Source of the DNA: an uncultured archaeon
GTDB taxonomy: Archaea > Altiarchaeota > Altiarchaeia > IMC4 > SCGC-AAA252-I15
Reading direction: 5' to 3'
DNA length: 64,000 nt
Assembly: GCA_902384455.1 (NCBI GenBank)
Contig: CABMCB010000004.1
Coordinates: 1 to 64,000 of the forward strand
Shown: positions 32,186-49,002 of the stretch, in pieces
Layout: the number at the start of each line of letters is the position of its first letter
Numbering within the stretch: position 1 is the stretch's first letter
Notes under the pieces: model-generated
Databases searched by the model: none
Told to the model about the DNA's origin: nothing
Seen by the model: only the letters and a program-made list of their open reading frames with translations
Made by a program: the position numbers and the translations under genes

Positions 32186-32199
32186 CCCAAAATTTAGGG
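32186..32199 (-). promoter_or_regulatory. late-gene motif CCCTAAATTTTGGG (copy 1)
   Basis: One of six copies of a near-palindromic motif upstream of - strand genes. Confidence 0.5.
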
Positions 32200-32211
32200 A
32201 TGAAATACCCT

Positions 32212-32282
32212 TTTCTCATAAATAAAAACGCCCCAATTTGAGCGTTGCCGAACCAAGTGGGCAAGAGGCTTGGGGCGTGTGC
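32212..32282 (-). terminator. rho-independent terminator (minus strand)
   Basis: On the - strand: ACGCCCCAAGCC...GGGGCGT long hairpin followed by TTTTTATTTATG. Confidence 0.55.
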
Positions 32283-32340
32283 TGCTTACGAGAAACGCTA
32301 AGCGTCTCCGCAACTCCTCCTACACTAGGTAGGTGAGCTA

Positions 32341-32745
32341 TTAGACCTGGGAAGAACTGTTGAGGGACTTCCCGAGCTTGTCGAAGGCGTCCTTGAACGA
32401 CTTCGCAAGGTTGGCATCACCAGGGTGTGACTTGATTTCCTGGTGAATCTTCAAGGCTTCCCGAATCTGGTCACCCATTTCCGACTGGGCGATACTCTTC
32501 AGAAACTGCTCCTGGTCGGCAGGAGACGCAGCCGCAAGAACTTCCAGGCTGGTCATCATGTCTTCGTAATTCATCGACGGGTTAATCGAGCTCATGCTTT
32601 TCTCCAGTTTTGATTTCTTCATCCGCTTGAAGTATTCGATTTGCTGAAGGCGTTTGACGGCTGCCTTCTTGGACGAGGGTTTCGAAAGCCGCTTGCTTCC
32701 GTCTTTGCTGAAAACTGAGTATCCGCTTCCCTCTTTGCGAATCAT
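32341..32745 (-). CDS. hypothetical protein (Lys/Ser-rich)
   Basis: 134 aa. Confidence 0.45.
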   Translation of the reverse strand: MIRKEGSGYSVFSKDGSKRLSKPSSKKAAVKRLQQIEYFKRMKKSKLEKSMSSINPSMNYEDMMTSLEVLAAASPADQEQFLKSIAQSEMGDQIREALKIHQEIKSHPGDANLAKSFKDAFDKLGKSLNSSSQV

Positions 32746-32746
32746 C

Positions 32747-33364
32747 TTAGCCCTTCTTGGCCTTCTTCACGAACTTACCGTACTTGCTGTCCTCACTATC
32801 CTCGCCATCACCCGGCTTGACAGGGAGAGGCTTAGTAGGCTTCTTCGCCTTGGCAGGTGGAGGAGCCCCTGGCTTCTTCGTAGCCGCTTGAGTGATGGAA
32901 GCCTTCGCTGCACGAGTAGCAGCAAGACGTTGCTTCCACTGGAAGTACCCGGCAGTCCCTTTGACAGGACCCCGGACACCCTTCTCAAGTCCCGGAGGAA
33001 CTTCACCCTCAGTGCGGGCATAGGCCTCGGGGGTCTTTCCTGCGAGAGAGTTCAGTCGGTTCAAGACAATCCCAATGACCGGCCCGGGGAGAATTGCGAA
33101 GATGATTTCGCGCTGCTCAGGAGAGGCGTCCTGGAGCTTCTGGACCATCTTCTCGATTTCTTCTCGGTCCCACTCGCGCTTGTCCCCAAGACCTTCAGAA
33201 GGAGATTTGTCGTTCTCAGCCGTAAGCTCAATCCCCTTCAGGATAGCCTGGCCCTCCGCAGACTTGTAGAACTCGTGTCTGACAGTCGGAGGCATTGAAA
33301 GGATAGCCTGAATAGCTCCTCGAAAGTCCTCGTTGCCTTGTTCTTTGGTATAGTCGATTTTCAT
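32747..33364 (-). CDS. hypothetical protein with Lys/Pro/Ala-rich basic C-terminus (scaffold-like?)
   Basis: RBS AAGAGGAAC; late motif 35 nt upstream. Confidence 0.45.
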   Translation of the reverse strand: MKIDYTKEQGNEDFRGAIQAILSMPPTVRHEFYKSAEGQAILKGIELTAENDKSPSEGLGDKREWDREEIEKMVQKLQDASPEQREIIFAILPGPVIGIVLNRLNSLAGKTPEAYARTEGEVPPGLEKGVRGPVKGTAGYFQWKQRLAATRAAKASITQAATKKPGAPPPAKAKKPTKPLPVKPGDGEDSEDSKYGKFVKKAKKG

Positions 33365-33400
33365 GGGTTCCTCTTAAGCAGTGTTTCTCCGTCTAATTAA

Positions 33401-33417
33401 CCCAAAATTTAACGGGG
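33401..33417 (-). promoter_or_regulatory. late-gene motif CCCCGTTAAATTTTGGG (copy 2)
   Basis: Lies between the GT9 gene end and the 33364 start. Confidence 0.5.
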
Positions 33418-33419
33418 TT

Positions 33420-34529
33420 TTACTTGCAAGCGACGTCTACGATGCCCTTGAGTTTTGATGCTATTTCAGCGTAAAGAGGGTCTTTGGGACTACAATAGGC
33501 CTCTTTAAGTGCCACCGCTTCCCTATCATTCGCTCGTTTAATCAAGGTATCTAAGGCCTTGGCGATGTCCGACAGGAACATTTCCTGAGAACACTCGGGG
33601 TATTTTACAGCCACAGGTACCTTAGTCTTAGGGCAAACATTCATCCAATCGTGTGTTCTCCACCAGCAGGGAGAGCAAGCCTTGCTTCTCAGGTTTATGT
33701 TATTGGGATACCCGAAGACAGAGGGTGGGGTGGAGCTAAACAGTACCAAGGAATCTGTACCTACCGCCTTAGCCAGGTGGGCAATCCCACCTTCAATAGA
33801 CACGTTGAACTGGGCACCCTTCAAGAGCTTGGCTGTCTTGAATACATTGTCGCAGTCCATGACCAGTACAGTGTCTGAAATCCGGGTATCTGTCGGAAGA
33901 CCTACTTGAATCGGAATGAATCCCTTGGTTTGTAGGTACAATGCTACAAGAGTCCAGACACTCCCGGGGAAACACTTTGTCTGTTTATCACCCCAGGCAG
34001 CATTACACAAGGTGACGTACTTGGCGTTCTTGTACGGGTTATCCCACCCATCCGCCAGGGACACGTTAACGAACATGTCCTCAATACTACCTTGGAGAGC
34101 AGCACTATCATAGAAGATTTCCCAGAAAGGCTTCTTAAGCTTCTCCATAGCAGGAATATCTTCAAGGAATTTGTGGAAGAGGTATCCGTACTTACGAAAC
34201 TTCTTATCAGTCTCCTCTTTGTAATCTCGCACACTCTTCAGCTCAAGAGCCTTATCAGAGAAATGCACCTTTGCCGCATAGTGGATTTCGTAAAAGATGT
34301 CGAACTTAGAGGCGTACTTCGAGGCGTAGTTCTCAATCCGGCTTACGCTTTCACGAACTACCTCGTTAACACAGGGGCACCCGTCGAACACATCGAAAGC
34401 TCTGCAGACAGCAAGGGTAATCCTACTGTTTGGGAACTTTCTTTTAATCGCGGCGCAGTAAGCAGAGACGTTGAGGTTGTCCCCGAGGCCCCCACCTTTA
34501 GATACGCCGATGTTCAGTACCTTATCCAT
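33420..34529 (-). CDS. glycosyltransferase family 9 (heptosyltransferase-like)
   Basis: N-terminal GVSKGGGLGDNLNVSAYCAAIKRKFPNSRITL matches the GT9 GLGD.L / ALK..YP motif; low-GC gene. Confidence 0.6.
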   Translation of the reverse strand: MDKVLNIGVSKGGGLGDNLNVSAYCAAIKRKFPNSRITLAVCRAFDVFDGCPCVNEVVRESVSRIENYASKYASKFDIFYEIHYAAKVHFSDKALELKSVRDYKEETDKKFRKYGYLFHKFLEDIPAMEKLKKPFWEIFYDSAALQGSIEDMFVNVSLADGWDNPYKNAKYVTLCNAAWGDKQTKCFPGSVWTLVALYLQTKGFIPIQVGLPTDTRISDTVLVMDCDNVFKTAKLLKGAQFNVSIEGGIAHLAKAVGTDSLVLFSSTPPSVFGYPNNINLRSKACSPCWWRTHDWMNVCPKTKVPVAVKYPECSQEMFLSDIAKALDTLIKRANDREAVALKEAYCSPKDPLYAEIASKLKGIVDVACK

Positions 34530-34536
34530 TTGACCC

Positions 34537-36825
34537 TCAGGGCTTCTGCCACACGTAGATGTAAGACACCTTCAGTGGCGCAATCCCCATTCGCTTGAAA
34601 AAGGCATTCACGAAGTTATGTTTTCCTGAAGTTTCATTAGCGCAGTCGTCCACGGCAATCAAACAACCGGACGGAAGCCTCTCGTAGCAAACCGCCAGCT
34701 CCCCTACTACATGAAGCTCAGACAACCCATAGGGGGGATTGTGGTCGTAGCTATCAAGGAACAGGAGAGAGGTGTTACTCAGGTCCATCTTGAGAAGTTC
34801 AGTGATTGAATCCCCCTGAATAATCTCAGCCCCTCGACTGAACGAACGGGCCAGTTTCACGTGACCTGGGTCAATGTCAATCGACTTCACGGACCCTCCC
34901 AGGTTAGCGACAAGCCACTCCCAAACACGGGTAGAACATCCCTGGCCGTGCCAATCCTCTGTCCAAGTACTCCCTGTCTCAACCACCTGGACAGAAGCCC
35001 CAGCATCAATCAGCTTCTGAGCAATCAAGCTGAAAGCTTCCCACCTGTGAGATTTCCCCAACTTAGGTCCGAATTCAATATTGAACTCGTCTGTAAGCAT
35101 TTGAGAATCCTTTACTATGGGGTTTTTTGAAAGCAGAGTCAGCATTTCACTGAACACCATTCCATTACCTACTCTCATTTCGTAAGTAAGCTCGTGGTCA
35201 CCTGTGTCAATGAAACTGACATTGGAATCCTCGTCCACGAGTGTATTCCAGGGTCTAAAATCTTCGTACCTGTTGGGGTTTGAAGTATACTTGAAGAAGA
35301 TTTCCTTCTGCATCTTGGACATATCGTAAAAAGGAAGCATGCCCCACCGAAAAATGTCACTCAAAAGCATCCCGTCCTTCTTAGGCTCTGGCGGAAACCA
35401 CCCTCTGTCTTTCCTGTACTTAAGGAAGTAGTCTTTACCATCTTCTCCAACAGCGTAGTAGTAGGCTCCCAAAGGACGTCGGTGCTGTACACCGATAAAC
35501 GAAATGTCCCAAGTGTCATACGCTCTGTATTTCTTTCCGTCGACTTCAAGCTCGATGTCTACCTTCTTCTTCAGTTGATAGATAGGTCTTACAGTATTAA
35601 GACGCTCGTTTCGGTCTACTCCAATCAGGCGGACACTGAACAGGCCGTGGGTAACCTTCTCCAGCTCCCTCTTGAAGTGGAGATACACGTTCCCAGAGCA
35701 GCGAAGCTTAGCAGCCCAGGGTAGGAATTCCAGGTGGGTGGCTTGTTCTACGTAAATGGTGTGGGCTCCAGAAGCAATTACCCTATCGAAGGTATCCTGC
35801 ATGCCTGAATACGTCGAGTCTGTCATGTTGTGATGGGACACCGACAGAAACAGGTAGGCTTCCGCTTCAACAAAATCCCGAGTAAACGTGCACTTGGAAC
35901 CTACCGACTTGGCAATGTGATTTGAAGCGTCCACCCAAGATTGGCCACACTCCACTCCGGTTACCTTGCCTGAACAGCCTGCAGCTTCCAAGGACATCGA
36001 GAAGTGGCCTAGGTTGGAGCCGAAATCACAAACACTGCTCTTGAGCAGAGCGGACCCATTGTAAACTCTGTCTGCAGACAGGATAGTTTCAATCCGTGAA
36101 TCGGATAAACGTCCCACAGGGTGAAGGTGTTCCAATCCGAATACGGGCTGATAAATCTCAGGAAGGTCGAACTCCTTCCCATAAATCGGACCGTACTTGG
36201 ACTTCTCAAGGAAGGCTTCAATCGCAGGAATCATACAGGTAAAGTCTCCTGCGTGTACCATACCGTCACTTTTAGGGGCAGGTACCAGGAACCCGTCGGG
36301 GGTACTGTGTTCACTGAACACATCAAAGAAAGTGTAGCCCCGTCGAGAACAAGCTTCCTTAAGAAGCATGTTCATTCTCGAAATGTAGGTCTGCCTCTGA
36401 GCATCAGAGCCGAGGAAAGGGAAGTCAGGGTTATTAAACTTCTGTGACTTGGAAATCTCTACCGTAGGTAAGACACCCTCGACTGCAACTCTCAAGCTTC
36501 GGTCGCCCACAACCTCCGCAATAGCTTCCATGTAGCGGAGAACTAAATCCTTGATTGTTTTCTCGTAGGTATCATGAAACTTGTTAATGTGACACCGGCA
36601 GTCAATCTCCCCAAAACAAAAAACGACAGCGTCCCCAGGCTTGACATTGTATTGGTTTAAGTCAATGAGAGAGGTCTTCTTATTTCCGAAAGTGTGCATC
36701 AAGAAAGGACCAAGGTGATGTACCTCAATGGGTACACTCAGCGCATTAGTCACTTTGAGGGAATTCCACCCGTGATGGCTATGACTATCCCCGAATGTAT
36801 GCAAGGTCATATCAGAGTTATACAC
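34537..36825 (-). CDS. multidomain enzyme: SGNH/GDSL hydrolase plus two class-I SAM methyltransferase-like domains
   Basis: HTFGDSHS (GDSx), VCDFGSNLGHFS (MTase motif I-like), VVETGSTWTEDWHGQG, LFLDSYDHNPPYG; 762 aa; low GC. Confidence 0.55.
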   Translation of the reverse strand: MYNSDMTLHTFGDSHSHHGWNSLKVTNALSVPIEVHHLGPFLMHTFGNKKTSLIDLNQYNVKPGDAVVFCFGEIDCRCHINKFHDTYEKTIKDLVLRYMEAIAEVVGDRSLRVAVEGVLPTVEISKSQKFNNPDFPFLGSDAQRQTYISRMNMLLKEACSRRGYTFFDVFSEHSTPDGFLVPAPKSDGMVHAGDFTCMIPAIEAFLEKSKYGPIYGKEFDLPEIYQPVFGLEHLHPVGRLSDSRIETILSADRVYNGSALLKSSVCDFGSNLGHFSMSLEAAGCSGKVTGVECGQSWVDASNHIAKSVGSKCTFTRDFVEAEAYLFLSVSHHNMTDSTYSGMQDTFDRVIASGAHTIYVEQATHLEFLPWAAKLRCSGNVYLHFKRELEKVTHGLFSVRLIGVDRNERLNTVRPIYQLKKKVDIELEVDGKKYRAYDTWDISFIGVQHRRPLGAYYYAVGEDGKDYFLKYRKDRGWFPPEPKKDGMLLSDIFRWGMLPFYDMSKMQKEIFFKYTSNPNRYEDFRPWNTLVDEDSNVSFIDTGDHELTYEMRVGNGMVFSEMLTLLSKNPIVKDSQMLTDEFNIEFGPKLGKSHRWEAFSLIAQKLIDAGASVQVVETGSTWTEDWHGQGCSTRVWEWLVANLGGSVKSIDIDPGHVKLARSFSRGAEIIQGDSITELLKMDLSNTSLLFLDSYDHNPPYGLSELHVVGELAVCYERLPSGCLIAVDDCANETSGKHNFVNAFFKRMGIAPLKVSYIYVWQKP

Positions 36826-36844
36826 CCCAAAGTAGCGGGTTGTA

Positions 36845-36885
36845 AAATAAAAAAGGCCGGAGCCCGAAGGCCCCGGCCTGTAAAA
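36845..36885 (-). terminator. strong rho-independent terminator (minus strand)
   Basis: On the - strand: AGGCCGGGGCC-ttcg-GGCTCCGGCCT followed by TTTTTTATTTT. Confidence 0.8.
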
Positions 36886-36895
36886 GACCCTTCGC

Positions 36896-37345
36896 TTAGA
36901 TTGCGAAGTGCTTGTCGTTCGGAGTGACCGCCACCTGTACCGTTGTAGGACCAGTGATTGTGGTCACCAGCACGGAGAGGACGTCCCCGGCTTCGAACTG
37001 AGTGAGTGCCTGACCGCCAGAAACGGCGGGAGCGAAGTTGAAAGGAACTCCGGTGTCAGCCACCAAGTTGGTCACTGCAGCATCGCAGGTGGCCAGCGTA
37101 GTGCTCCGGGTCACGTTCTTGACTTCGACAGTCCCTGAAGTTTCAGCCCCGGGAGCCGCAACAATGACCTGTTCCACGAAGCCGGAGAAGGGAGCTACGA
37201 AGAAAATCAGCTCCGCCCCAGTAGTGGCGTTGACCGTAACGCGCTTACGGTTCAGTTCCTTCAGAGCGCCTGCAATCTGCTCCAGGTTGGCGACACGAAC
37301 GTTCTTCTTGTGCAGGATGTTCGAAAACAACTCGGTAAATCCCAT
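36896..37345 (-). CDS. abundant late protein (Ala/Thr/Val-rich; structural candidate)
   Basis: 149 aa, followed by the strongest terminator in the window; late motif upstream. Confidence 0.5.
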   Translation of the reverse strand: MGFTELFSNILHKKNVRVANLEQIAGALKELNRKRVTVNATTGAELIFFVAPFSGFVEQVIVAAPGAETSGTVEVKNVTRSTTLATCDAAVTNLVADTGVPFNFAPAVSGGQALTQFEAGDVLSVLVTTITGPTTVQVAVTPNDKHFAI

Positions 37346-37430
37346 GCTGATTTCCTCTTCTGCTTTCGCAGGTAGTCTCCGGCTTTGCCGGGTCAGCGCC
37401 GCCCAAGGCGGGTATTCGCTGCTTAAACTA

Positions 37431-37446
37431 CCCCAAAATTTAGGGG
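37431..37446 (-). promoter_or_regulatory. late-gene motif CCCCTAAATTTTGGGG (copy 3)
   Basis: Upstream of gene 36896..37345. Confidence 0.5.
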
Positions 37447-37449
37447 ATT

Positions 37450-37842
37450 TTAGCTGACCATCAGGTAAATGTCGTAGGCACCAGAAGTGCCAGAAGTCCC
37501 GAATTTAAGGCCACGATACCGAGTAGTAATCCGAACAATCCCGTCAGCCCCGGTAGTGGTAATTGCCGTAACCCAGGTACTCCCGTCAAGGGTCCCCTTA
37601 ATCACAGGGGTGGCTGTACCTACAACCTGGAGGGATACCTCGTTGAAAGGTCCGCACCAGAGAGGTACGTTGGTAGTGGCATCAACATCCTTGTTCCCAG
37701 TAGCTGCCTTGTAGAGGTACCCGTGAAGAACGAAACTGCGGGCGTAGAAATCGTAGGCAGCGTCGGTCTGGGAAATAACCCGGCCATTGAGCTTGGCGAG
37801 GTCCAGGATGGTACCTGGCTTAGAGTTCTTAATTCCGAGCAT
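37450..37842 (-). CDS. hypothetical late protein (Thr/Gly-rich; structural candidate)
   Basis: 130 aa; RBS AAGGAGCC. Confidence 0.45.
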   Translation of the reverse strand: MLGIKNSKPGTILDLAKLNGRVISQTDAAYDFYARSFVLHGYLYKAATGNKDVDATTNVPLWCGPFNEVSLQVVGTATPVIKGTLDGSTWVTAITTTGADGIVRITTRYRGLKFGTSGTSGAYDIYLMVS

Positions 37843-37869
37843 TGTGGAAGGCTCCTTGGTTTGGCTAAT

Positions 37870-38424
37870 TTAGCCCAAAATTTTGGCTTGTTTACGGCGT
37901 CTTTTGTAGGCCAGGTTTGTTTCTTTAATCTTTTTACGGTATTTTGGGTCTTTACGGTACCTGTTCCTCATGTACTTAAGGTTAGCCAGGTATCGACGTT
38001 CTTTAAAGCACTTCCGGCAAAGCTTGGCACAGGAGGGCTTCGGAAGGATTACTTGCTCATCACAATCTTCACACCGAATCCCGAAGGGGATGTTAAACTC
38101 TACGATAAGGGCCTGAATGTCAGCATCCCGAACTCTGAGTTTGGCAGCCATTCGGCGGACTTTCCAACCACAAAGTCGAAGGTTAAAGATTTTGGCCCTC
38201 AACCCCTCCAAGACACGCGGGGACAAGTCCGTAACACAAGATAGCTTTCTGAGAACCTTTCCTTTTCGAACAATGCTAAGAATGGTTTCTTCGCCCAGTT
38301 CGAAAGTCTCGGAAATATCCTCAATCTTGTCTCCACGCTTGAAACACCGACGAATCTCCTCATCCCTGTAGTGGATGTAGTCGAGCTCTTTCGGGTCTTC
38401 AACAGCGTGGATTTCAAGAGCCAT
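37870..38424 (-). CDS. putative DNA-binding protein (HTH plus C-terminal Cys pairs)
   Basis: EETILSIVRKGKVLRKL; CEDCDE...CRKC; basic tail. Confidence 0.45.
   Translation of the reverse strand: MALEIHAVEDPKELDYIHYRDEEIRRCFKRGDKIEDISETFELGEETILSIVRKGKVLRKLSCVTDLSPRVLEGLRAKIFNLRLCGWKVRRMAAKLRVRDADIQALIVEFNIPFGIRCEDCDEQVILPKPSCAKLCRKCFKERRYLANLKYMRNRYRKDPKYRKKIKETNLAYKRRRKQAKILG
37873..37887 (-). promoter_or_regulatory. late-gene motif GCCAAAATTTTGGGC (copy 4)
   Basis: 25 nt upstream of start 37842. Confidence 0.45.
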
Positions 38425-39707: not shown

Positions 39708-40422
39708 TCTCTTCTCTCTTCTTTCGGTCTTTCTTGATTCGAACCGTGATGTCTGAATCGTAAACAGGGTCCCGCATCACCAAGTTTCCTGCCCGGTCTA
39801 CTCCCACATTCCGTCTATTAAACTCGAAAGTAAGTCCCGGACGCCCCTGTTCAATGATACCGTGGTAGAGGTGTTCAAGAGCTTCTACCAAGGCAGGATT
39901 CTTCTTAATCAGCTTTTCTTTAGCCAGTTCAACGGTCATCTTAGCTGCTTCATTACCTAAGAAGGTCATGCTTGGGGACCCGTTAGTCTCTGCCCGGTAC
40001 CTGTCGTAAACCATACGCATACCATCAGCACGAAGCTTATGCAAGATTTTCATGTCCACCCAGGCTCTATGGTCAGACTGACGAAGGTCCCTGTAGTGTG
40101 GCATCTTATAGATTTTGCAGGTCTTGTTAAGCTCGGGCCCACTCACGTAGCAGGATTCGAGGAATTCAATGCGGGGAAGGTAGGGGTTGTTTGGAGCATG
40201 TTCATAGGCAACAACCAAGGTATCTTTGGCAGTGTCTTCACCCTCGGAACCATCCAAGAAAACCAGACGGGGGATGAAAGCATATACCAAACTTTCCTTG
40301 CCGACCTCAGAAAAAGCAAGGACAGTAGCCCCACCCCCTACGAAGCACATATCAATCTCTTCGTAGATTCCCTTCGAGGCCACGTCACTGAGAATGATGC
40401 GTACTTTATCGCCCTTGAACAT
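39691..40422 (-). CDS. hypothetical protein
   Basis: 243 aa. Confidence 0.45.
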   Translation of the reverse strand: MFKGDKVRIILSDVASKGIYEEIDMCFVGGGATVLAFSEVGKESLVYAFIPRLVFLDGSEGEDTAKDTLVVAYEHAPNNPYLPRIEFLESCYVSGPELNKTCKIYKMPHYRDLRQSDHRAWVDMKILHKLRADGMRMVYDRYRAETNGSPSMTFLGNEAAKMTVELAKEKLIKKNPALVEALEHLYHGIIEQGRPGLTFEFNRRNVGVDRAGNLVMRDPVYDSDITVRIKKDRKKREENGNSD

Positions 40423-41122
40423 GTCCAGTCCCTACTTGGGTAGGTGGGTAGATAGAGAGGTAGTAGTTGAGTATCCGGGCCTGGGTAATGATGTTGGAGT
40501 AGTAGTTCAAGGAGTAGAACTCCCTGAAACTCATACCGAGCTTGCTGCACTCGGCAAGGGTAATGTCTTCCAACTTCTTACCGCTTTTAAGGTACTTTGA
40601 AATGCCCACATGATACTTCTGCCAGCTACCAGGACCGCAGTTGTAGGTGATTAAGGTCACCACTCGGTTCTGGTACTCACTCTTAAACCCCCACTTGGTT
40701 GCTTTGATTTGGTTCGCCATATCAAGCCGGTAAGCGGCTTCAATAGAGAACCTGAAATCGTGCAGAAGTCTCCACTTGATTACAGAAAGCGGAATCTTCG
40801 GGTACATACCTGCAACAACATCAGCCTGCAGGCATTCAATACCGTAGCACGGTTCGTTGTTGTAGCGTCTACCAGCAATGGTAAACTCAGTACCAATCTC
40901 AGGCTTATAGCCGGATTCATGGCCAGTCTTGGCCATGTGCCAAAACATGCTCTGATGGTACTTCTTGCTGAACTCTCGGTTGGCGGCGATAATCTCTGCA
41001 ATTTGCCCAGGCTTCAACCTTGGGTTCCGTTTTTGGATGTAGATGTAGTACGGGTCGTAGGCCAGAACTGACTGAAAGAGGCCTACAAACAGCACCACAG
41101 CTAACAGCAGGGATTTCTTCAC
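40406..41122 (-). CDS. secreted protein (signal peptide)
   Basis: MKKSLLLAVVLFVGLFQSVLA signal; 238 aa. Confidence 0.5.
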   Translation of the reverse strand: MKKSLLLAVVLFVGLFQSVLAYDPYYIYIQKRNPRLKPGQIAEIIAANREFSKKYHQSMFWHMAKTGHESGYKPEIGTEFTIAGRRYNNEPCYGIECLQADVVAGMYPKIPLSVIKWRLLHDFRFSIEAAYRLDMANQIKATKWGFKSEYQNRVVTLITYNCGPGSWQKYHVGISKYLKSGKKLEDITLAECSKLGMSFREFYSLNYYSNIITQARILNYYLSIYPPTQVGTGHVQGR

Positions 41123-41200
41123 TTGTCCCCCGTTCTACGGGTTGTTTATTCTCACCTCAGTATACACCGTTTACCGAGGATTCTCACACCCCAAAACTCT

Positions 41201-41452
41201 TTATTTTCCCCACCCCACCAGGATAACAAACTCGACAAACTTACATCCCGGGTCGCAACAGGTGACTTTCTGGTGAACTGTGCCTACCAGACGTGGCGTA
41301 GTTGAAATGTGGTATGGAGGGCAGTTGATGGTGTTCAAATGCCCGTGGGGGCACCGGAAGAACACCGAGCTACGGGTCTTGGGACCATAGTAATCCCAAA
41401 CCAGAGGCTCTTTATCTTGCCTTGTCCTGGGTGAGAAGCGGAGCTTTTCCAC
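41201..41452 (-). CDS. small Cys/His-rich protein (83 aa)
   Basis: FFRCPHGH...CPPYH...CCDPGC; weak RBS. Confidence 0.3.
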   Translation of the reverse strand: MEKLRFSPRTRQDKEPLVWDYYGPKTRSSVFFRCPHGHLNTINCPPYHISTTPRLVGTVHQKVTCCDPGCKFVEFVILVGWGK

Positions 41453-41457
41453 GGAGC

Positions 41458-43404
41458 TTACTCAGATTCCACGGTTACCGTAAAGGGAGGGCTATCCTTA
41501 TAGCCTTTGAGAGCCTTCTCGAACTCTCCCGTCACGATACCCTTTTGAATCTCAGCAGCGAAGTCCTCGAAGTTATCAAACGCCCCAAAGTCCCAGGCGT
41601 CAACACCCTTCTTGACTTCCTTCTTGGCAGGCTTCGATTCCGCTTTCTTCTTCGGAGGAGCCTTCTCGGCAGCAGGAGGAACCGCTGCCGCTTCTTGAGC
41701 TTGCTGTTCGGCCAACTGCTCGGCCTGCTTGTCAGCCTGCTCAACCTGGAAGTCCTGACCCTGTTTCGTCTGCTCTTCAGTGAACTTCTGGGTCATTTCC
41801 AGGTTTTCCTTCTGACTCTTCGTCATCTGCTCAGCCACCTGAATTTGAGCGTAGACGCTGTTCAGAAGGATGTCCCCACCGTCAATGGGCGGCAGGTCGT
41901 TCTCAGCACGAACTTCATTAACCGTCTTGAAGTTCTTGAGCTCCTTCTCGTGGAGCTCAACTTGGTCCATTTCCGTCCCACCATCCAAGCCGACAAACAC
42001 CAGCTCATAGTTGGGGTCGAGATACCGCATAATCTCACGATTCATGCCGTTCTCGAAGAAAGTCAACAGGGGGACCAATCCCTTGTCACGGGAGGCCTTC
42101 AAACGCATTTCAGACTTGGATTCGAACACGGCTCCCTGGCCGTTATTCGACATCTGGGAGGAGAAGTTGATTTCTTCCGGAGCAATCTGGTAGACCGCGC
42201 AGGCCACCTTAATCAAGAAGTCATTGTACTTCGAGAACTCCATTTCACGGTTCGTCTGCTGCATGTTGATGAATTCAAGGCCACCTTCAGCAGCAACGAT
42301 AGGAGTACGCCACGCCCCAGTAATCCCAGCAAGCTGGGCCAGCCAGGCCTTCTTAAAGGCATCCATCTGCGTCTGGCTCATATTGGCCTTGACGTTCAGA
42401 ACACCCTTAGGGCTGGAGCCGCTGGAGAAGAATCGACGGTTGTATTCAGCAGCAAAGAGGATGGCCGTAACTGTCTGAATAAGCTGTTCCACCTCAGAAT
42501 AGCCATACCCAGCCACGTTGATTTCAGTACGAGGCCAAGCGACCATGAAGGCCATTTCGTCCTTGGTGTACTCACACACAATCTGGCCATTCATGACCTG
42601 GACGAACGCCTTCTCGTTGAGGGGTACATTCACCCGAGCCCACCCCTTACCACGGTCGTTGACCATTTGGGTATCAATGGAGTTCTTGATGGGGTTGGTG
42701 TCGTCGAAGAACTTACGGAGGGCAATACGAATAGTGGCGGAATCTACGGCTACGAACTCGTGGAGCTGCCCACCACGAGTGAACACACGTTCAAAGTTAC
42801 CCTGGTCAACAATCAGACGGTCGCGGGTTTCCTTACGGATGAACTGTTCAAAGTAATCCCGAGTATGGGCGGCATCGCCCTCCCCACAGTTAAGGATGAA
42901 TTCCTCATACCGCTGAGCTTTCTTACGCTCAGACTCCGACATTGCCTTGGTCTTGGAGGCACCCTTCTTCTGGACACGGAAACCGAGGGAATGCTTAGTC
43001 CGTGGAACCCGGCAGAAAGAGGACACTTGGTTGACACGAGTATTGACAATAGCAGAGAGAATCTGGCTCTGCTTCACCATTTCATGAAGGGTCTGGTAGG
43101 TCACCCCAGAAATCATCTGCTTATGGGTAAGGGTGTCCGTAAAGGTGAAGGGGTTGAAAAGGAAAGACTTTGGCTTGCCGTCGTGGACTGTCTCGGTCTG
43201 ACCGTCAACGGACTTCTGGAGGTTCTTAAGGGACTCCAAGAGCTCTGGTTCGGACAACCGGGGAATCTCGGTCGGAAGGTCATTTACGGCCTTTAAAAGC
43301 CGCTCTTGTTCTTCGGGTTTCTTAAATACCTGAGGAATCACCTCATTGGCGATTTCCTCAATGCGCTTTTTAGGAATCCCGGGATTCTCAAAGCTGGGAG
43401 GCAT
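41458..43404 (-). CDS. portal protein (putative)
   Basis: 648 aa, immediately downstream of the terminase large subunit, with a Lys/Glu-rich C-terminus; late motif upstream. Confidence 0.55.
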   Translation of the reverse strand: MPPSFENPGIPKKRIEEIANEVIPQVFKKPEEQERLLKAVNDLPTEIPRLSEPELLESLKNLQKSVDGQTETVHDGKPKSFLFNPFTFTDTLTHKQMISGVTYQTLHEMVKQSQILSAIVNTRVNQVSSFCRVPRTKHSLGFRVQKKGASKTKAMSESERKKAQRYEEFILNCGEGDAAHTRDYFEQFIRKETRDRLIVDQGNFERVFTRGGQLHEFVAVDSATIRIALRKFFDDTNPIKNSIDTQMVNDRGKGWARVNVPLNEKAFVQVMNGQIVCEYTKDEMAFMVAWPRTEINVAGYGYSEVEQLIQTVTAILFAAEYNRRFFSSGSSPKGVLNVKANMSQTQMDAFKKAWLAQLAGITGAWRTPIVAAEGGLEFINMQQTNREMEFSKYNDFLIKVACAVYQIAPEEINFSSQMSNNGQGAVFESKSEMRLKASRDKGLVPLLTFFENGMNREIMRYLDPNYELVFVGLDGGTEMDQVELHEKELKNFKTVNEVRAENDLPPIDGGDILLNSVYAQIQVAEQMTKSQKENLEMTQKFTEEQTKQGQDFQVEQADKQAEQLAEQQAQEAAAVPPAAEKAPPKKKAESKPAKKEVKKGVDAWDFGAFDNFEDFAAEIQKGIVTGEFEKALKGYKDSPPFTVTVESE

Positions 43405-43437
43405 TTCGTTTATCCTGGACTTGTTTTCTTCCTAAAA

Positions 43438-43455
43438 GCCCAAAATTTAGTGGGG
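43438..43455 (-). promoter_or_regulatory. late-gene motif CCCCACTAAATTTTGGGC (copy 5)
   Basis: 35 nt upstream of the portal start. Confidence 0.5.
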
Positions 43456-43460
43456 TTTCA

Positions 43461-45329
43461 TTAAAGAAACCAGGAAATATCCTGTGGAGGGGCTTCATCG
43501 GGGTTCTCCAGAGGGACGTAAGTATGACCTAAAACCTCGGGCGGGAACACAGGGAAATTCACCTTATTATCGTTGGGGTCAATCCCCGTAAAGATTCTAT
43601 CATCCATGAAGGTATAAATCATGTTCTCTTGGGCCTTTGCCAAACCCTCTGCAATGGCCCGGGTAATACCAATAGCTGAGTCTACCACGTCCTTGCTGTA
43701 GATGGGAAGGTGGTCAGGCTTCTTTCCATCCCAGACAATGCGCTCTGTCTCAAAGAGGAGCTTGGTGTGCTTAGGGTACCTTACAGCCCCCGCCCAAAGC
43801 ATGTTACGGTAAAGGACATAGTCCTTGGTATTGATGTTGTGCTTCTCAGAGTCCATGCCGTTACGAACGGCCTTTTCCAGGACATACTGAGACTGGTACT
43901 GGTCGTAGGAGATATAACGGCACCCCGTCATCCCTACCAAGCTTTCGATGACTTCGTCAACGTTCATATGGCTGACGACAGCTTGGTGTTTGAGGTCAGG
44001 CTCCCAAACCAGAATCTGGTCAATTACGATGATGTTTTTAATAGTCGTATTGACCGTTTTCCCCGTATCATCAACGAAAGTGGAGGCAATGTTACAGGGC
44101 TCCCCGTGTCCAATAACCACGGTTGTTGAGTCTCCTGAGATACTCAAGTCAACGTGGATAGCCCAAGCCCGTGTACGGTCAACTCGGGAAATGTTAGAGG
44201 CCAGAATACGCTTGATGACAAACTTCACCTTCTTGCCAGAAGCGTCCGTAATCTCCTGGATTTCATCCACTGTAGTGAGGAGCGGTTCAATGCTGTTATC
44301 AATAGCCGACTGAATGCGCTCGTCGTTGTAGAAGAATCGGTTGAGGATGATAGGAGGTACAGTACAGAACTTCATCCTCGAATTGAGAGGGTCCGTCTCG
44401 AAGTGGGTCTTGAACGAAATAGGGACGTCCCACTGCTCAAACCTGAACGTAGGCTCTCCGTTGTACCGAGGATTAAACTCCCAGGTACAGCCACGAACGC
44501 CCAACAGGATACCACCATCCCCCTTCTGGGAGTTCTCATACATGCGGATAGTGAAGTCGTCGACACGCCGAGGGAAGGAAATGATGACTCCCAGCCATGG
44601 GAGTTTACGGGATACGGCGGAGGTCAATAGGGTATTGTAGATGATTTCAGCCTTACCCACGTTGATGATTTCGTCTCCACTACGTACTGTTTCGAACTTG
44701 TCCTCGAACTCGGAAGCTTCGTCCATGCAGAAGAACAAGACATTGTAACCTTCGAAGTTACCAGCCTCGCTATGCAAGCTGTTGCAGCGGATGTTATTGG
44801 CTGTTTCAACGGCTGCGTCCGTAATACGCACTTCCATACGGGAACCACAAGAGCGGCGAAGAGGGGCCCCCCGGAAGCTGACTTTGAAGTTGTCGAGAAG
44901 CCACTTCCAGTTCTTGATACGGGAAGTGAACTTACTGAAGAAGATTTTACGGGCCTGTTGAGCTGTCGGGGCCACGTTCATGATGTCGATGTTTTCTTCT
45001 TGAGGGAAGTCGAAGTAGGCGTGGGGGTCCTTCATACACAGAAGAATGTAGAAGAGGTAGGCCTGAAGGACGGAGGTAACATAGTCCTTTCCAGAGCCCT
45101 TGCCCCACAGGAACACACCTACGCGCTTGACCCGGTCCATAGAAAAGACCTTGACAGGGTCATCCCCAATTAGTTGGAAAATAGCGTCGTATTGCCGAGG
45201 CGAAAGACCAGCCTGATGCAAATGTTCCTTAGACGTGACGAATTCTCGGAAGTGTACTGGTTTACACCAGTAATCCGCCCGCCACGTCTCAGTATCAGTG
45301 AATAGGATTTGGTCGATTAAGCCTGGCAC
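43461..45329 (-). CDS. terminase large subunit
   Basis: Walker A FLWGKGSGKDY, Walker B VLFFCMDEASE, C-terminal RNase-H-like nuclease region. Confidence 0.75.
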   Translation of the reverse strand: MPGLIDQILFTDTETWRADYWCKPVHFREFVTSKEHLHQAGLSPRQYDAIFQLIGDDPVKVFSMDRVKRVGVFLWGKGSGKDYVTSVLQAYLFYILLCMKDPHAYFDFPQEENIDIMNVAPTAQQARKIFFSKFTSRIKNWKWLLDNFKVSFRGAPLRRSCGSRMEVRITDAAVETANNIRCNSLHSEAGNFEGYNVLFFCMDEASEFEDKFETVRSGDEIINVGKAEIIYNTLLTSAVSRKLPWLGVIISFPRRVDDFTIRMYENSQKGDGGILLGVRGCTWEFNPRYNGEPTFRFEQWDVPISFKTHFETDPLNSRMKFCTVPPIILNRFFYNDERIQSAIDNSIEPLLTTVDEIQEITDASGKKVKFVIKRILASNISRVDRTRAWAIHVDLSISGDSTTVVIGHGEPCNIASTFVDDTGKTVNTTIKNIIVIDQILVWEPDLKHQAVVSHMNVDEVIESLVGMTGCRYISYDQYQSQYVLEKAVRNGMDSEKHNINTKDYVLYRNMLWAGAVRYPKHTKLLFETERIVWDGKKPDHLPIYSKDVVDSAIGITRAIAEGLAKAQENMIYTFMDDRIFTGIDPNDNKVNFPVFPPEVLGHTYVPLENPDEAPPQDISWFL

Positions 45330-45556
45330 TTTTTGGTCGCCGCCTTTTTCACCTTGGCTACAATCTTAGGACAGGCTACGGTAAGAACGAGTTTCGGCAC
45401 TTTACCTGCCTCAACTTCGAACTCTGCCTTCATTACGTTATGGATTTCAGTCTTGACCCCGTTCTCACTCACGTTGTAGACGTGGGTATTCAGGGAAGAC
45501 CCGTCGCACTCAACAACGACGTAGGGAGGTACGAACTTACCTTCTTTGAAGCTCAT
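45317..45556 (-). CDS. hypothetical small protein
   Basis: RBS AAAGGA before ATG 45556. Confidence 0.4.
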   Translation of the reverse strand: MSFKEGKFVPPYVVVECDGSSLNTHVYNVSENGVKTEIHNVMKAEFEVEAGKVPKLVLTVACPKIVAKVKKAATKKCQA

Positions 45557-45557
45557 G

Positions 45558-46247
45558 TTACTTATCCTTTTCACTCTCGAAGATATCTCGGAGAGTTACA
45601 GATTTACGAATGAGCTTGGCCAGCTCGGTGAAAAGAGCTTCCTTCAAGGAAGTATCCACGAGGATGTTATCCGCTGCTTGGCGGAACAGGACAAGGAATT
45701 CAGTGATGCGGTCAGCTCCGTCACCTGTACCCTTGATGTTGACAGACACTTCAGGTACACCGAGGCTCTTACTGAGTTCGATGAACTGAGCAAGACTCTG
45801 ACGCATTTTATCACGAGCCATGAGCATCATAGCCCGGTCTTTTGCGGAGTAGGAACTAGCAAGGTACTCGTCAGAGAGCGAGAGGTCGTCTGTGGCACTC
45901 TCGACAATAAGGTCCAGCATTTCCCGGTTCTTTTTTACGGTCCCAAGGAAACTGTCAAACCCCTCGCTACGAACAAGCGAAGTGGACTCGGTGGAACCTT
46001 GAGGAACAGAAAGGTCGGGAATCTGTAGGAGAGCTGAAGGAACTGCCCGCTGAAGGTGACGCCGATGGGAGAACAAAGCCATCGGCGTCAGGGGAAACGC
46101 CTTCTCTGCAAAGTGCCCACTGTACTTCGACAGGACATCAGCAAGCGGCATCTGTTCGAGAAGGTCTTTGTCGATTTCAGCGACAACCTTATCGTCCCGA
46201 TGCTGGCAAATGCGACATCTTGGAAGTTTCAGGTAGGAGTAGGCCAT
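45558..46247 (-). CDS. possible terminase small subunit (CxxC N-terminus)
   Basis: Position upstream of TerL; 229 aa. Assigned by position only. Confidence 0.35.
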   Translation of the reverse strand: MAYSYLKLPRCRICQHRDDKVVAEIDKDLLEQMPLADVLSKYSGHFAEKAFPLTPMALFSHRRHLQRAVPSALLQIPDLSVPQGSTESTSLVRSEGFDSFLGTVKKNREMLDLIVESATDDLSLSDEYLASSYSAKDRAMMLMARDKMRQSLAQFIELSKSLGVPEVSVNIKGTGDGADRITEFLVLFRQAADNILVDTSLKEALFTELAKLIRKSVTLRDIFESEKDK

Positions 46248-46249
46248 GC

Positions 46250-46720
46250 TTACTTCCTCTTGGGGAATACCGAGGTGATGTTCTTACAGATTTCCGCATA
46301 TACGGAAAACCTGTAAACCACCTTGTTTCTCCACCAGTACCCGAGCTTATACTTTGCCGAAACGTAGGGACAGGACATCACAGCTTTGTAAAGTATTTCC
46401 CTGTGCTCGAAGGTGGAGTCATTCTCAACCAGCTTGCTAGTAAGGTATAAGTCATCCATGCCTGTAAATTCCAAGTAGGTGCTCTTCTTACCAAAGTCCC
46501 ACATTCGCCAGCGTTGCTGGGACACCCTATAAGGGTGGGTTACTCGGAACCACCATTGCCCAACAACACTCTTCTGGAAAGACCGACGAATCCTCCAGGG
46601 GATTGCAAAAAAGTAGGCTTTAGTCCCTTCCCAAGCAGACTTAAAACTTACTTTAATCTGTAACCACTTAGCCCCAATGTAGTCCGAGGCAACCTTAAGA
46701 CACGCTTTAATCTTCTTCAT
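46250..46720 (-). CDS. hypothetical protein (Trp/Arg-rich)
   Basis: 156 aa. Confidence 0.45.
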   Translation of the reverse strand: MKKIKACLKVASDYIGAKWLQIKVSFKSAWEGTKAYFFAIPWRIRRSFQKSVVGQWWFRVTHPYRVSQQRWRMWDFGKKSTYLEFTGMDDLYLTSKLVENDSTFEHREILYKAVMSCPYVSAKYKLGYWWRNKVVYRFSVYAEICKNITSVFPKRK

Positions 46721-46723
46721 GGG

Positions 46724-47521
46724 TTACTCCTTGGGCGGTTTGGGCTTGTTCTTGGAACCTGCAGGACGTCCCCGACCGCGCTTCACAGCAACCCCAGTGA
46801 CTGGAGCCACAGGCTGTCCATCAACAGAAGCTTGGGCTTCCTTGCCCTTTGCTTCAGGAGCAGACTTCTCGACAGTCTCAACAGGCCGTTCAGGAACAGC
46901 GATGCCCTTCTTCCGCATGTTGAGAGCCGTAGCATCATCAACCATGATGATGTGGCCTTCCTTGTTACGCATAGCGACACGCCGCACGGTCTTGTGCTGG
47001 ACGAATTCCTTGACATCGTTGGGGTCCTGAGCTTCCCCAGGATGAGAGAACTTCGGGGTCAAAGCCTTCACCATATCCTTACCAAGAAGACCCTGCTCTG
47101 CAGAGGTGAATACGCCCAGGGTGTACTTACCTGCAGTGACACCATCATGAGCCTTGGCTTGGCTACGAACTTCGCTCAGGTTCTTCTTCGCCCTATCGAA
47201 TTCTACGGTGCGCTGCATGTCGTTCTGGATGTACTGCTCGGGCCGCTTCTTACCAGGCCACAATTCGCGGACTCCCTTGTAAACCATGACGAAGTTTCCG
47301 TCTTTGTCCTGGCTGGCAACGTAGGGAACGCACGGGCAGATGAGAGGGACTTGGTAAACGACGCCGTTGATGGACTTGGGGGCCACACTCTTGTACCCCG
47401 ACTTGCACTTCATGCAAGTGGTATCGCGTTCCTCAAAGATGAACCTGGAAAGTTCAATGAGGCTGCTGGTACCTACTGGCATTGCGTATCTTTTCTCGGA
47501 AGCTGGGTTTTGCTGAGTCAT
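46724..47521 (-). CDS. hypothetical protein with AT-hook-like basic tail
   Basis: C-terminus KRGRGRPAGSKNKPK. Confidence 0.45.
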   Translation of the reverse strand: MTQQNPASEKRYAMPVGTSSLIELSRFIFEERDTTCMKCKSGYKSVAPKSINGVVYQVPLICPCVPYVASQDKDGNFVMVYKGVRELWPGKKRPEQYIQNDMQRTVEFDRAKKNLSEVRSQAKAHDGVTAGKYTLGVFTSAEQGLLGKDMVKALTPKFSHPGEAQDPNDVKEFVQHKTVRRVAMRNKEGHIIMVDDATALNMRKKGIAVPERPVETVEKSAPEAKGKEAQASVDGQPVAPVTGVAVKRGRGRPAGSKNKPKPPKE

Positions 47522-47904
47522 TTGGTACTACCTTTCTTCGCGTTACGGCCCGTCAGGAGCCGCTTAATGTCTTGAAAAAACCACTTAAAACTGAGAAGGG
47601 TCTTACGGAACCACGAGGGCTCTTTCCAGATACGGAACCTATTCTTGTAATCAATAAGCTCCATATCCCTGTGGTTTACAAGGTCCTTGTCGTCAACGTC
47701 GATATAGGCAACCTTGTCCAAACAGATAATCCCGCTCATCTTCTTATCTGGTCCGTCGTACCAGAGCGTAAAGGTACGGTCCCTGACAGAGTTCAGCGCC
47801 AAAGACAGGTTAAGAATCTCAGCTTGGCTCAGAAGTAAATCTTTTTGAGAGCCACTCACCAAGTGTATTCTCACCAACCTGTAGGCGGTTAAGTCTTCTG
47901 GCAT
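47518..47904 (-). CDS. hypothetical protein
   Basis: Overlaps the 3' end of 47819..48409 by 86 nt, so the start is uncertain. Confidence 0.35.
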   Translation of the reverse strand: MPEDLTAYRLVRIHLVSGSQKDLLLSQAEILNLSLALNSVRDRTFTLWYDGPDKKMSGIICLDKVAYIDVDDKDLVNHRDMELIDYKNRFRIWKEPSWFRKTLLSFKWFFQDIKRLLTGRNAKKGSTK

Positions 47905-48409
47905 CTTCCTTACTCCTCCGAATGCTCTTGATATTCAGGTACGGAATATCCTCAAAAGCTTTCAGGTACGGTCGAAGTTTCGACTTCGGCCCCATTGCCT
48001 CGTCCAGCGTGATTTTGGACGACTGCAACCACCTTTGCGCGGTGGATGGCTGGATTCCAAACTCGGTGGCGATGTCCTTCAAGGCTTTAAGCTCCACGTA
48101 GTGTAGGAGCAAGCACTTGAACTTGTCTGGCGTGAGAACCTTTACAGCGAACCTTAAAAACTCAACGTAGTTCATCTTGTAATGGTAGGTGTAGACTGCC
48201 CGAATCTTACGGGAAATCACCTTCCGACGCCTTACGACTTCGCACGGAGGGAGCTCAAGGAGTTCTGCGATTTCCTTAGTACGACGGCGCTTTAGCGCCA
48301 GGGAAATAAAGTCACTCTCCAACGGGGTCAGATAGCTACTGGAAATAGCTAAGAGAACTTCGTGGGAGACTTCCCTCACATCGTCGGAAATCTCAAGCAG
48401 GGTGCTCAT
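47819..48409 (-). CDS. sigma-factor region-4-like HTH protein (transcription regulator)
   Basis: LKDIATEFGIQPSTAQRWL and TKEIAELLELPPCEVVRRR resemble sigma70 region 4; late motif upstream. Confidence 0.5.
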   Translation of the reverse strand: MSTLLEISDDVREVSHEVLLAISSSYLTPLESDFISLALKRRRTKEIAELLELPPCEVVRRRKVISRKIRAVYTYHYKMNYVEFLRFAVKVLTPDKFKCLLLHYVELKALKDIATEFGIQPSTAQRWLQSSKITLDEAMGPKSKLRPYLKAFEDIPYLNIKSIRRSKEDARRLNRLQVGENTLGEWLSKRFTSEPS

Positions 48410-48477
48410 TAGAGCCCAGCTCGTTTAGGTTGTAAAAGTCTTTCCCTGGTACTGAAGCGCACTGTGCACTCTCCTAA

Positions 48478-48493
48478 CCCCAAAATTTAGGGG
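48478..48493 (-). promoter_or_regulatory. late-gene motif CCCCTAAATTTTGGGG (copy 6)
   Basis: Perfect match to copy 3; upstream of gene 47819..48409. Confidence 0.5.
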
Positions 48494-49002
48494 TTATCAC
48501 GAGAACTGGTCGAAAGGTGCGGAATAGCAACCCAGCGCTTCACCACCCGGTTGGGAAGCTGTACTGCAATCTGGGCCATAAGAGCCTTCTTTCGAAGCAC
48601 CTTTCCGGAAAAGCCTCCAAGGATTCCTTCGGTCACACGAACCGCCTGTCCGACTGAAATCCTGCTCTTCTTGAGAAGAACCTTCTTCCTGAAAGCTTTA
48701 ACTTGAGAGTCAGGAATAGAAGGAGGAAGGCCTTTCTGGTTTACGTTGAAGAATTCTCCAACCCGCCTTGACTTAATCAACTTGACAATTTCGACCAGCT
48801 TCTTGTCATTCACTCTGATAAGTACATACCCTTCAAGGAGTGAATCTTCCTTTTCGTCGATGTCCAAGTTGTCTTTCTTGAACTCGAAGATAAGGACTTC
48901 TTTTAAATCGCCCGACTTCGGGTTGTATCCGCCCTTCTTAAGTTCCGCCATAAAGGCGTCTTTGGAAGAGACAGAGCTTTGAATTGCGTACCACTTGTAC
49001 AT
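48487..49002 (-). CDS. NusG-like transcription factor (NGN plus KOW)
   Basis: N-terminal KWYAIQSSVS (compare NusG RWYVVQ) and KOW motif GQAVRVTEGILGGFSGKV. Confidence 0.6.
   Translation of the reverse strand: MYKWYAIQSSVSSKDAFMAELKKGGYNPKSGDLKEVLIFEFKKDNLDIDEKEDSLLEGYVLIRVNDKKLVEIVKLIKSRRVGEFFNVNQKGLPPSIPDSQVKAFRKKVLLKKSRISVGQAVRVTEGILGGFSGKVLRKKALMAQIAVQLPNRVVKRWVAIPHLSTSSRDNP

Follow-up and report, generated by a model that had tools for sequence, protein, structure and literature searches.

A conserved intergenic motif in six copies as a candidate phage-specific promoter of packaging and virion genes in an uncultured SPO1-like phage

The 64,000-nucleotide (nt) stretch analysed here (the window; contig CABMCB010000004.1, positions 1 to 64,000) belongs to a large, uncultured, SPO1-like (Herelleviridae-like) phage. 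It contains the short sequence (T/A)AAATTTTGGG six times, every copy lying on the minus strand, which raises the question of what this motif does and which protein reads it. A first-pass annotation, made from the letters alone, had described six copies of a near-palindromic motif upstream of late genes and had suggested a late promoter read by phage-encoded factors. We consider it likely that the six copies, referred to below as class A sites, are phage-specific promoters of the packaging and virion module, and that they are promoters at all appears highly probable.

The six copies stand well above chance. Allowing at most one mismatch, the 11-mer TAAATTTTGGG matched six times in the window against 0.93 matches expected, with none of 100 dinucleotide-preserving shuffles reaching six, and the full 17-mer of the first-pass annotation, allowing at most two mismatches, matched four times against 0.08 expected. 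With a weight matrix built from the sites of the window and those of its relatives, the six sites scored 28.9–37.1 bits, compared with 18.3 bits for the best of 30 shuffled windows; the other high scores were shifted or complementary readings of the same six sites, save for one weak independent site at 59113–59123 (minus strand). According to a simple gene map, non-coding DNA makes up 989 of the 34,253 nt of the minus-strand block (2.9%), and all six sites lie inside it, on the coding strand. Neither the pattern search nor the weight matrix found a class A copy in the plus-strand block or anywhere on the plus strand of the window, which agrees with the earlier claim that the motif is missing from the early genes. 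A literature string search for the core returned unrelated primer sequences only.

The relatives used for comparison are metagenomic contigs found by protein similarity, namely L086 (= L090, L097, L104), L087, L088, L089, L091 (with L100) and L096, of which L086, L087, L088 and L089 were retrieved via the portal protein and L091 via a double helix–turn–helix (HTH) protein. Gene order is conserved among them, the guanine–cytosine (GC) content ranges from 37% to 49%, and the portal is 63–80% identical. Across six junctions in the window, L086, L087, L088, L089 and L091, the core AAATTTTGGG was present at 20 of 20 orthologous positions, twice with one substitution, although these 20 comparisons are not independent events because the relatives were themselves retrieved by portal or double-HTH similarity. 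Site 1 (TAAATTTTGGG, 32186–32196, 32.2 bits) precedes gene 31777–32166 and has its orthologue at L088:14515 (core in two of two genomes), and site 2 (33401–33411, 31.1 bits) precedes gene 32747–33364, with an orthologue at L088:13416 (two of two). Site 3 (37432–37442, 36.2 bits) lies upstream of an 86-nt structured leader and gene 36896–37345, with orthologues at L087:5981 and L088:9290 (three of three), and site 4 (AAAATTTTGGG, 37874–37884, 37.0 bits) precedes gene 37450–37842, with orthologues at L087:5574, L088:8831 and L091:20489 (four of four). Site 5 (43439–43449, 37.1 bits) lies between the genes for the large terminase (43461–45329) and the portal (41458–43404), a junction that carries the core in all six genomes, and site 6 (48479–48489, 28.9 bits) lies between the NusG-like gene and the 196-amino-acid (aa) double-HTH gene 47819–48409, with orthologues at L086:5417 and L091:9931 (three of three). 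Counted from the end of the GGG triplet, the start codons at 32166, 33364, 37345, 37842, 43404 and 48409 follow after 19, 36, 86, 31, 34 and 69 nt, respectively, so that the placement upstream of these genes given in the first-pass annotation holds, as does the TA-rich stretch that it described after GGG. The notion that the copies are a chance repeat or the functionless remnant of a small mobile element, which the shortness of the core alone might invite, has a negligible probability in view of the shuffled sequences, the intergenic position and gene-wise orientation of all copies, and the retention of the core at every orthologous junction while flanks and GC content diverge.

The near-palindrome did not survive the comparison as a property of the motif. 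The left arm varies among the six sites of the window (CCCT, CCCCGT, CCCCT, AGCCA, CCCCAC and CCCCT) and is gone in AT-rich relatives (e.g., aagctTAAATTTTGGG and ataatgAAATTTTGGG), being lost in L086 and L091 with the core kept; the palindrome is therefore not a conserved feature but an incidental one, and conservation is limited to the right-hand AAATTTTGGG and a T-A step. Across 17 sites, the information content forms one block from −10 to +18 relative to the start of the core, with 1.55–1.87 bits per position in the 10-bp core and weaker signals for AA at −9/−8, ccCT at −4 to −1, and T and A at +11/+12. Where a −35 element would lie, these sites show no conservation: between −45 and −20 relative to the core start, the information content is at most 0.26 bits. 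Judged from this alignment, the conserved unit is one block of ~28 bp, AA-N3-ccCT-AAATTTTGGG-N-TA, without a −35 element.

The same comparison bears on whether the motif acts in RNA, be it through processing, as a hairpin or by ending transcripts between cistrons. A CCCC/GGGG hairpin is possible at sites 3 and 6 (−11.5 and −14.6 kcal/mol; z scores −1.95 and −2.95), and many RNase E sites are AU-rich, as the core is, whereas folding at the remaining four sites does not exceed that of shuffled sequences (z scores +0.02 to −1.28), and the left arm on which such a hairpin depends is the part lost in L086 and L091. Furthermore, no U-tract follows the motif, the terminator scan calls none of these sites, no Rfam family matches the motif, and a processing site right after a terminator, as at site 1, would be without a substrate. 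An RNA-level function is thus highly improbable.

The surroundings of the sites point instead to transcription initiation. The plus-strand block (1–29910), used as a contrast, encodes 22 tRNA genes clustered at 2065–9860, contains no class A copy and is rich in host-type promoters: sigma70-type sites number 21 against 7.5 ± 2.7 expected, many of them with 10–12 of 12 matches plus a TG extension, and about 15 are near-consensus promoters of the form TTGACA-N17-TGnTAnAAT. By contrast, sigma70-type sites are not enriched in the minus-strand block (8 vs. 13.3 and 6 vs. 9.4 expected), and a scan for the host sigma70/sigma-A consensus (TTGACA, 16–18 nt, TATAAT) called none of the six class A sites. 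The minus-strand block contains two strong intrinsic terminators and almost no other candidate promoters. One terminator (32227–32246) lies just upstream of site 1, which follows it at a distance of ~30 nt in both the window and L088 across intervening sequence that is not conserved. The other (36854–36879), with 11 pairs and then TTTTTATTTT, ends the single-gene unit of site 3, in which the site, the leader, a 149-aa gene and the terminator form a self-contained whole. The leader (37346–37431, minus strand) is predicted to form three hairpins, with five predicted pairs kept by compensatory changes across three genomes, and the DNA downstream of site 3 is therefore transcribed; the 149-aa product is 80% identical in L088, and this arrangement is probably a highly expressed single-gene unit. 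Because the copies are strictly intergenic, follow the orientation of the genes, stand after a terminator at one site, occupy junctions conserved in diverged relatives and are absent from the sigma70-rich early block, a promoter or related regulatory function is supported.

The terminators also invite another explanation, in which polymerase in the transcribed leader pauses at the motif or takes up the phage NusG paralogue there, much as RfaH is recruited at ops, and so becomes resistant to terminators in the late block. All relatives keep the NusG-like gene, which in the window immediately precedes site 6, and strong terminators do occur inside the late block. However, such a mechanism is weakened because it needs separate upstream promoters and none are visible: no conserved promoter precedes the sites, and at site 1 only ~30 non-conserved nucleotides separate the motif from the terminator. 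Each terminator is followed by its own promoter-like box, suggesting re-initiation over read-through, and L093, L094 and L105 keep the NusG-like gene without the GGG core. The ops sequence is GGCGGTAGnnTG, which the motif does not resemble. We thus regard loading of the NusG paralogue as very unlikely to account for the sites.

If the sites are promoters, the register in which they are read has to be settled. The register that we favour, with a modest degree of confidence, takes AAATTT (−12 to −7) as the −10 element, which puts an A at −11 and a T at −7; the discriminator between the −10 element and the start point would then be TGGG, and the conserved T-A step would occupy positions −1/+1, so that RNA would start ~2–4 nt after GGG. 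Site 1 bears on this choice directly. In both the window and L088, the ribosome-binding site GGGAG starts 8 nt after GGG; 6–8 nt further on comes a conserved start codon, which is ATG in the window and GTG in L088, and the proteins align from residue 6 on. For the mRNA to include this ribosome-binding site, transcription would have to start no more than 17 nt from the first A of the core, and the −10 function must then fall inside the core.

Many sites carry a TAnnnT hexamer 1–5 nt after GGG, which allows another register and counts against ours. It is also the basis of an alternative in which the core is the binding site of a phage activator, for example the 196-aa protein, and a weak TAnnnT −10 box close behind it serves the host sigma-A holoenzyme; GGG-N-TAnnnT would then pass for an extended −10 element, with RNA starting ~13 nt after GGG. 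Hexamers of this type follow GGG-N as TATATT, TAAATT, TAGTTT and TAAAAT, the 196-aa protein is conserved with two predicted folds of DNA-binding type, and the site is partly palindromic in the window. On the other hand, the spacing of the hexamer is variable, the portal sites have TTTTAG in its place, and in the window as in L088 the mRNA would lack the conserved ribosome-binding site of site 1; the GGG-N-TAnnnT register is disfavoured for these reasons. Furthermore, a site centred near −18 is, to our knowledge, unusual for an activator, and the HTH units of the 196-aa protein do not behave as expected of the reader, as the first unit is invariant with or without the motif, and the second differs between two motif-bearing genomes and is nearly the same in motif-less L094. 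An activator acting with sigma-A is consequently an unlikely explanation.

With AAATTT as the putative −10 element, the following scenario may be proposed. The host sigma-A polymerase would transcribe the plus-strand early block from consensus TTGACA/TATAAT promoters, after which a phage-encoded factor would redirect the host core polymerase to the class A sites; the most likely such factor is the 192-aa sigma70-family protein 62437–63015. Each class A site would re-start transcription at the head of an operon, in one case directly after a terminator.

Which phage protein could be that factor? The proteins named in the first-pass annotation proved to be what it had said: a sigma70 region 2 is found in 62437–63084, a region 4 in 47819–48409 and an NGN domain in 48487–49002, and 41458–43404 encodes the portal. 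The sigma70-family protein ('sigma-215'; 62437–63084, minus strand) matches Pfam Sigma70_r2 and a PHROG sigma factor family and is the candidate reader; its gene probably starts at 63015, because the database version has 192 aa. In the shorter protein, region 2 is matched by PF04542 with 31 bits against a cut-off of 24 (E-value 2.2e-7) and by the PHROG sigma factor with an E-value of 7.6e-8, and region 4 is weakly matched by PF08281 with 20.2 bits, below the cut-off of 25.7. An AlphaFold2 (AF2) model of this protein, built from three sequences only, has low confidence, with a predicted local distance difference test (pLDDT) score of 61. Homologues occupy the same slot between the primase and polymerase genes in L096, L097, L100, L101 and L102, and four motif-bearing genomes share FSTY(L/I)Y..(H/Q)SLI.N at the region 2.3/2.4 stretch, from which motif-less genomes differ, a contrast confounded by phylogenetic distance.

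The 196-aa protein (47819–48409, minus strand), whose own gene lies downstream of site 6, has two tandem HTH units resembling sigma region 4. It shows a region 4 match of 31.2 bits and no region 2 in either the alignment or the AF2 model (pLDDT 87). In a fold search this model came closest to sigma factors and sigma4 domains, at weak E-values. The protein is 45–86% identical across 17 metagenomic relatives and is not a canonical sigma factor. The recognition helix of its first unit is invariant in genomes with and without the motif, and that of the second differs between the window and L091, both motif-bearing, and is nearly the same in motif-less L094. Because these helices do not follow the motif, the protein is a poor candidate for the GGG-specific sites, contrary to the suggestion that a region-4-like protein encoded here might read them. 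The NusG-like protein (48487–49002, minus strand) has an NGN domain (PF02357, 27.4 bits against a cut-off of 22.2), with no KOW domain reported, and its gene stands next to the double-HTH gene in all relatives, whether or not the motif is present. The presence or absence of the three candidate proteins relative to the motif does not discriminate among them, and tblastn searches of cultured phages with the sigma70-family and 196-aa proteins gave no match.

Several observations weigh against the view set out above, in addition to the shared ancestry of the junction comparisons and the downstream hexamers. L101 and L102 have the sigma homologue and lack the class A core; conversely, on the L098/L103 contig the sigma gene is absent from its slot and from all 42 kb read, yet variants of the core are present. 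The sigma gene of L096, L097 and L100 is itself preceded by a class A copy, so that a class read by this sigma factor would need another way to start. The link between the sigma factor and class A is thus circumstantial, with a mixed co-occurrence, and both promoter function and register are inferred. We hold the 192-aa protein to be the best candidate for the reader, tentatively and with a little less than even confidence. A composite signal is also conceivable, in which a minimal and very diverged phage sigma factor reads a −10-like element, and the NusG paralogue or the double region-4 protein joins the initiating polymerase at GGG and the flanking non-template strand. We consider it quite unlikely; if true, it would give terminator-resistant transcripts and a new promoter-coupled antitermination of the Q or RfaH type in the SPO1-like lineage.

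The word 'late' needs qualification as well. In the window, strong copies occur only in the packaging and virion module, where the operon heads of morphogenesis genes hold class A sites and the early region has none, with the caveat that relatives have copies in the replication module: L096, L097 and L100 have further class A copies upstream of helicase, primase and sigma genes. Because of these strong copies, class A would be phage-specific and serve middle plus late genes rather than being strictly late. Promoter-like behaviour tied to phage-specific transcription is thus retained from the first-pass annotation, and 'late' is too narrow. Two strong copies occur in L002, one preceding a virion-protein operon and the other the tail sheath gene; the major head protein of L002 is ~44% identical to those of the same Herelleviridae set that the portal of the window matches, and a kinship to the clade of the window beyond this head-protein match is unproven. 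Two exact 11-mers and a weak sigma-like open reading frame in L006 were treated as chance, since one copy is intragenic and the contig has 33% GC, and the remaining single-copy matches of the pattern scan of viral contigs were given no weight, as the pattern itself did the selecting.

In the window itself, the weak copy at 59113–59123 (GAAAGTTTGGG, minus strand) lies just after the DNA polymerase gene and upstream of gene 58681–59064. Its score of 17.2 bits is below that of the best shuffled window (18.3 bits), and it is counted solely because this position just after the DNA polymerase gene matches that of a strong orthologue in L096 (L096:13973). Within 59065–59130 (minus strand), the copy overlaps a TTGACA-N17-TATAAG sigma70-like site, and the region may be a dual-class promoter for gene 58681–59064.

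The window also contains boxes of a second type, here called class B. The 'degenerate seventh copy' reported at about 36818–36833 has no matrix score as class A and is a different, TATA-type and −10-like box, GGTGTATAAC (36818–36826, minus strand), upstream of gene 34537–36825. A second box, GGTGTATACT (41160–41168, minus strand), lies upstream of gene 40406–41122 and is conserved in L087, L089 and L091. These two positions are the only exact matches to GGTGTATAM in the window, both are intergenic, and between them they are conserved as TATA-type boxes in L087, L088, L089 and L091. The class B form (GGTGTATAA/C-C/T) resembles the late box of Kayvirus phages (TGTTATATTA) as well as the L093 boxes found in place of class A. 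Another suspected second motif, TGGGGTGT, occurred 3 times against 2.8 expected and was not conserved in more distant relatives, and GGTGTATAM was adopted instead.

More distant relatives show how the junctions change. They keep cnAAATTTT upstream of the portal gene with an altered triplet, AGC in L103 and AAY in L094 and L105, and the kept AAATTTT with an altered triplet fits an AT-rich −10-like element with a clade-specific discriminator. On the contig represented by both L098 and L103, the element upstream of the portal is cTAAATTTTAGC, cTAAATTTTAG(G/C), and AAATTTTAG variants are present. In L093, the TATA-type boxes TGGTATATTA and AGTTATAAT replace class A at the junctions upstream of the portal and NusG-like genes, with a further TGGTATATTA box just after the terminase gene, and in L094 a perfect TTGACA-N17-TATAAT site follows the portal gene; different promoter types therefore occupy these junctions. 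Two side observations concern the same contigs. L098 (7954–9196), with L103, is a natural variant in which the polymerase is 49% identical and no sigma gene lies in the primase-to-polymerase slot. The 749-aa large terminase of L093 (13818–16067) has a faint match to intein splicing and is followed by a DUF723 gene, probably an intein or homing element; the window has no such insertion.

Although the proteins of the window are deposited in the NCBI database under a 69,214-bp contig labelled 'uncultured archaeon', this label is probably wrong for the contig. An archaeal host is argued against because the DNA carries sigma70-consensus promoters, intrinsic terminators and a sigma70-family gene, and the portal (41458–43404, minus strand), which is ~40% identical to those of SPO1-like and Herelleviridae phages, also indicates a bacterial virus; a reading of the motif as an archaeal TATA/BRE element was ruled out by the same promoters, terminators and sigma70-family gene. 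Related contigs of ~148 kb suggest the size of the full genome. A nucleotide search of cultured phages with 30–50 kb gave no match, and two scans of bacterial and archaeal genomes, with a portal profile and a profile of the 196-aa protein, found nothing.

The layout of the window is that of a plus-strand block, which is an early or auxiliary region, and a minus-strand block, which converge at ~29.7–29.9 kb, with GC contents of 52–60% and 47–54%, respectively. The plus-strand block encodes an RNA ligase, a polynucleotide kinase and a radical S-adenosylmethionine protein. The RNA ligase (27068–28210) and polynucleotide kinase (28596–29477) genes form a T4-like RNA repair pair (27068–29477, plus strand) beside a DNA-ligase-like gene (29704–30483, minus strand). 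A search for Rfam families across the window found tRNAs only, and a tRNA-like element with an irregular anticodon loop lies at 24226–24302 (plus strand; ARAGORN anticodon 'gg'; Rfam tRNA 29.9 bits against a threshold of 29). In the minus-strand block, the virion genes are interspersed with a family 9 glycosyltransferase-like gene (33420–34529) and the gene for a 762-aa protein (34537–36825) with weak matches to methyltransferases and GDSL lipases. The region at 49–64 kb (minus strand) is a replication and recombination module that encodes a primase, the sigma factor, a family A DNA polymerase, a RuvC-like resolvase, a UvsX/RecA-like recombinase, an SbcCD-like nuclease, an exonuclease and an ATPase. 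It includes a 97-nt gap (56854–56950, minus strand) with a tandem CCTGGGGT repeat and a possible hairpin, which is near-identical in the close relative L096 (~16700–16790).

A −35-less phage promoter is a known type, represented by T4 and Staphylococcus phage K, and what is new here is the sequence. The closest known arrangement is the programme of Kayvirus, and the late promoters of T4 are the classical analogue. In Staphylococcus Kayvirus, the early promoters described, 58 in number, follow the sigma70 consensus, and the 12 late promoters, attributed to a phage sigma factor, have a long −10 box but lack a −35 box (PMC7698491); the late −10 box of the Herelleviridae phages K and vB_SauM-515A1 is TGTTATATTA (PMC7698491, PMC11598898), and the structure, function and factors of late promoters in phage K are stated as not understood (PMC11598898). 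The portal of the window and the head protein of L002 are ~40–44% identical to those of Herelleviridae, both programmes combine many strong sigma70-consensus early promoters with a TG extension and a few single-block, −35-less promoters concentrated in the virion module, and in both a phage sigma-like gene is present and the reader of the promoters is a candidate. However, the class A sequence AAATTTTGGG is unrelated to that of the Kayvirus box, to which the class B boxes of the window (GGTGTATAAC/T) and the TGGTATATTA boxes of L093 are closer; the sigma factor of the window has no tblastn match in cultured phages, and class A also occurs in the replication module of relatives.

The −10 box of T4 late promoters is TATAAATA. 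As in T4, an AT-rich element of the −10 region alone would define the promoter with no −35 box, and a small diverged phage sigma factor is encoded among replication and recombination genes, whereas the class A block is longer, with an invariant GGG plus an upstream ccCT, and the core AAATTTTGGG does not match the T4 box. T4 late promoters are read by gp55 with gp33 and the gp45 clamp (PMC11598898); in contrast, the sigma factor here has a putative C-terminal HTH resembling region 4, no homology to gp55 was found in it, and a logic of the gp33 and clamp-loader kind was not identified. SPO1 promoters are bipartite, with −35 and −10 elements ~17 bp apart. The window shares with SPO1 the lineage of its virion genes, two sigma-like genes and a possible cascade from host sigma-A to a phage sigma factor of ~200 aa, unlike SPO1 in that class A has no conserved −35 box and that the proteins show no detectable similarity; in SPO1, a cascade with gp28 and gp33/gp34 reads middle and late promoters (PMC13401047). 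In phiEco32 and 7-11, the promoters of the phage sigma factor were recognized by motif search and later validated (PMC8948821, PMC4331800). These phages resemble the present one in that a phage-specific promoter motif goes together with a small phage sigma factor of extracytoplasmic function (ECF) size, limited to region 2 and region 4 (the latter putative here), but they are an unrelated lineage, podoviruses of enterobacteria, with a different motif.

Late promoter recognition in the group of SPO1 and phage K is unresolved, and this uncultured sister clade offers a compact set for in vitro testing, with a sharp 10-bp core that stays constant across GC contents of 37–50%, three conserved candidate proteins and the natural variants GGG, AGC and AAY. 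In the annotation of these metagenomic phages, the motif can also serve as a practical marker of transcription units.

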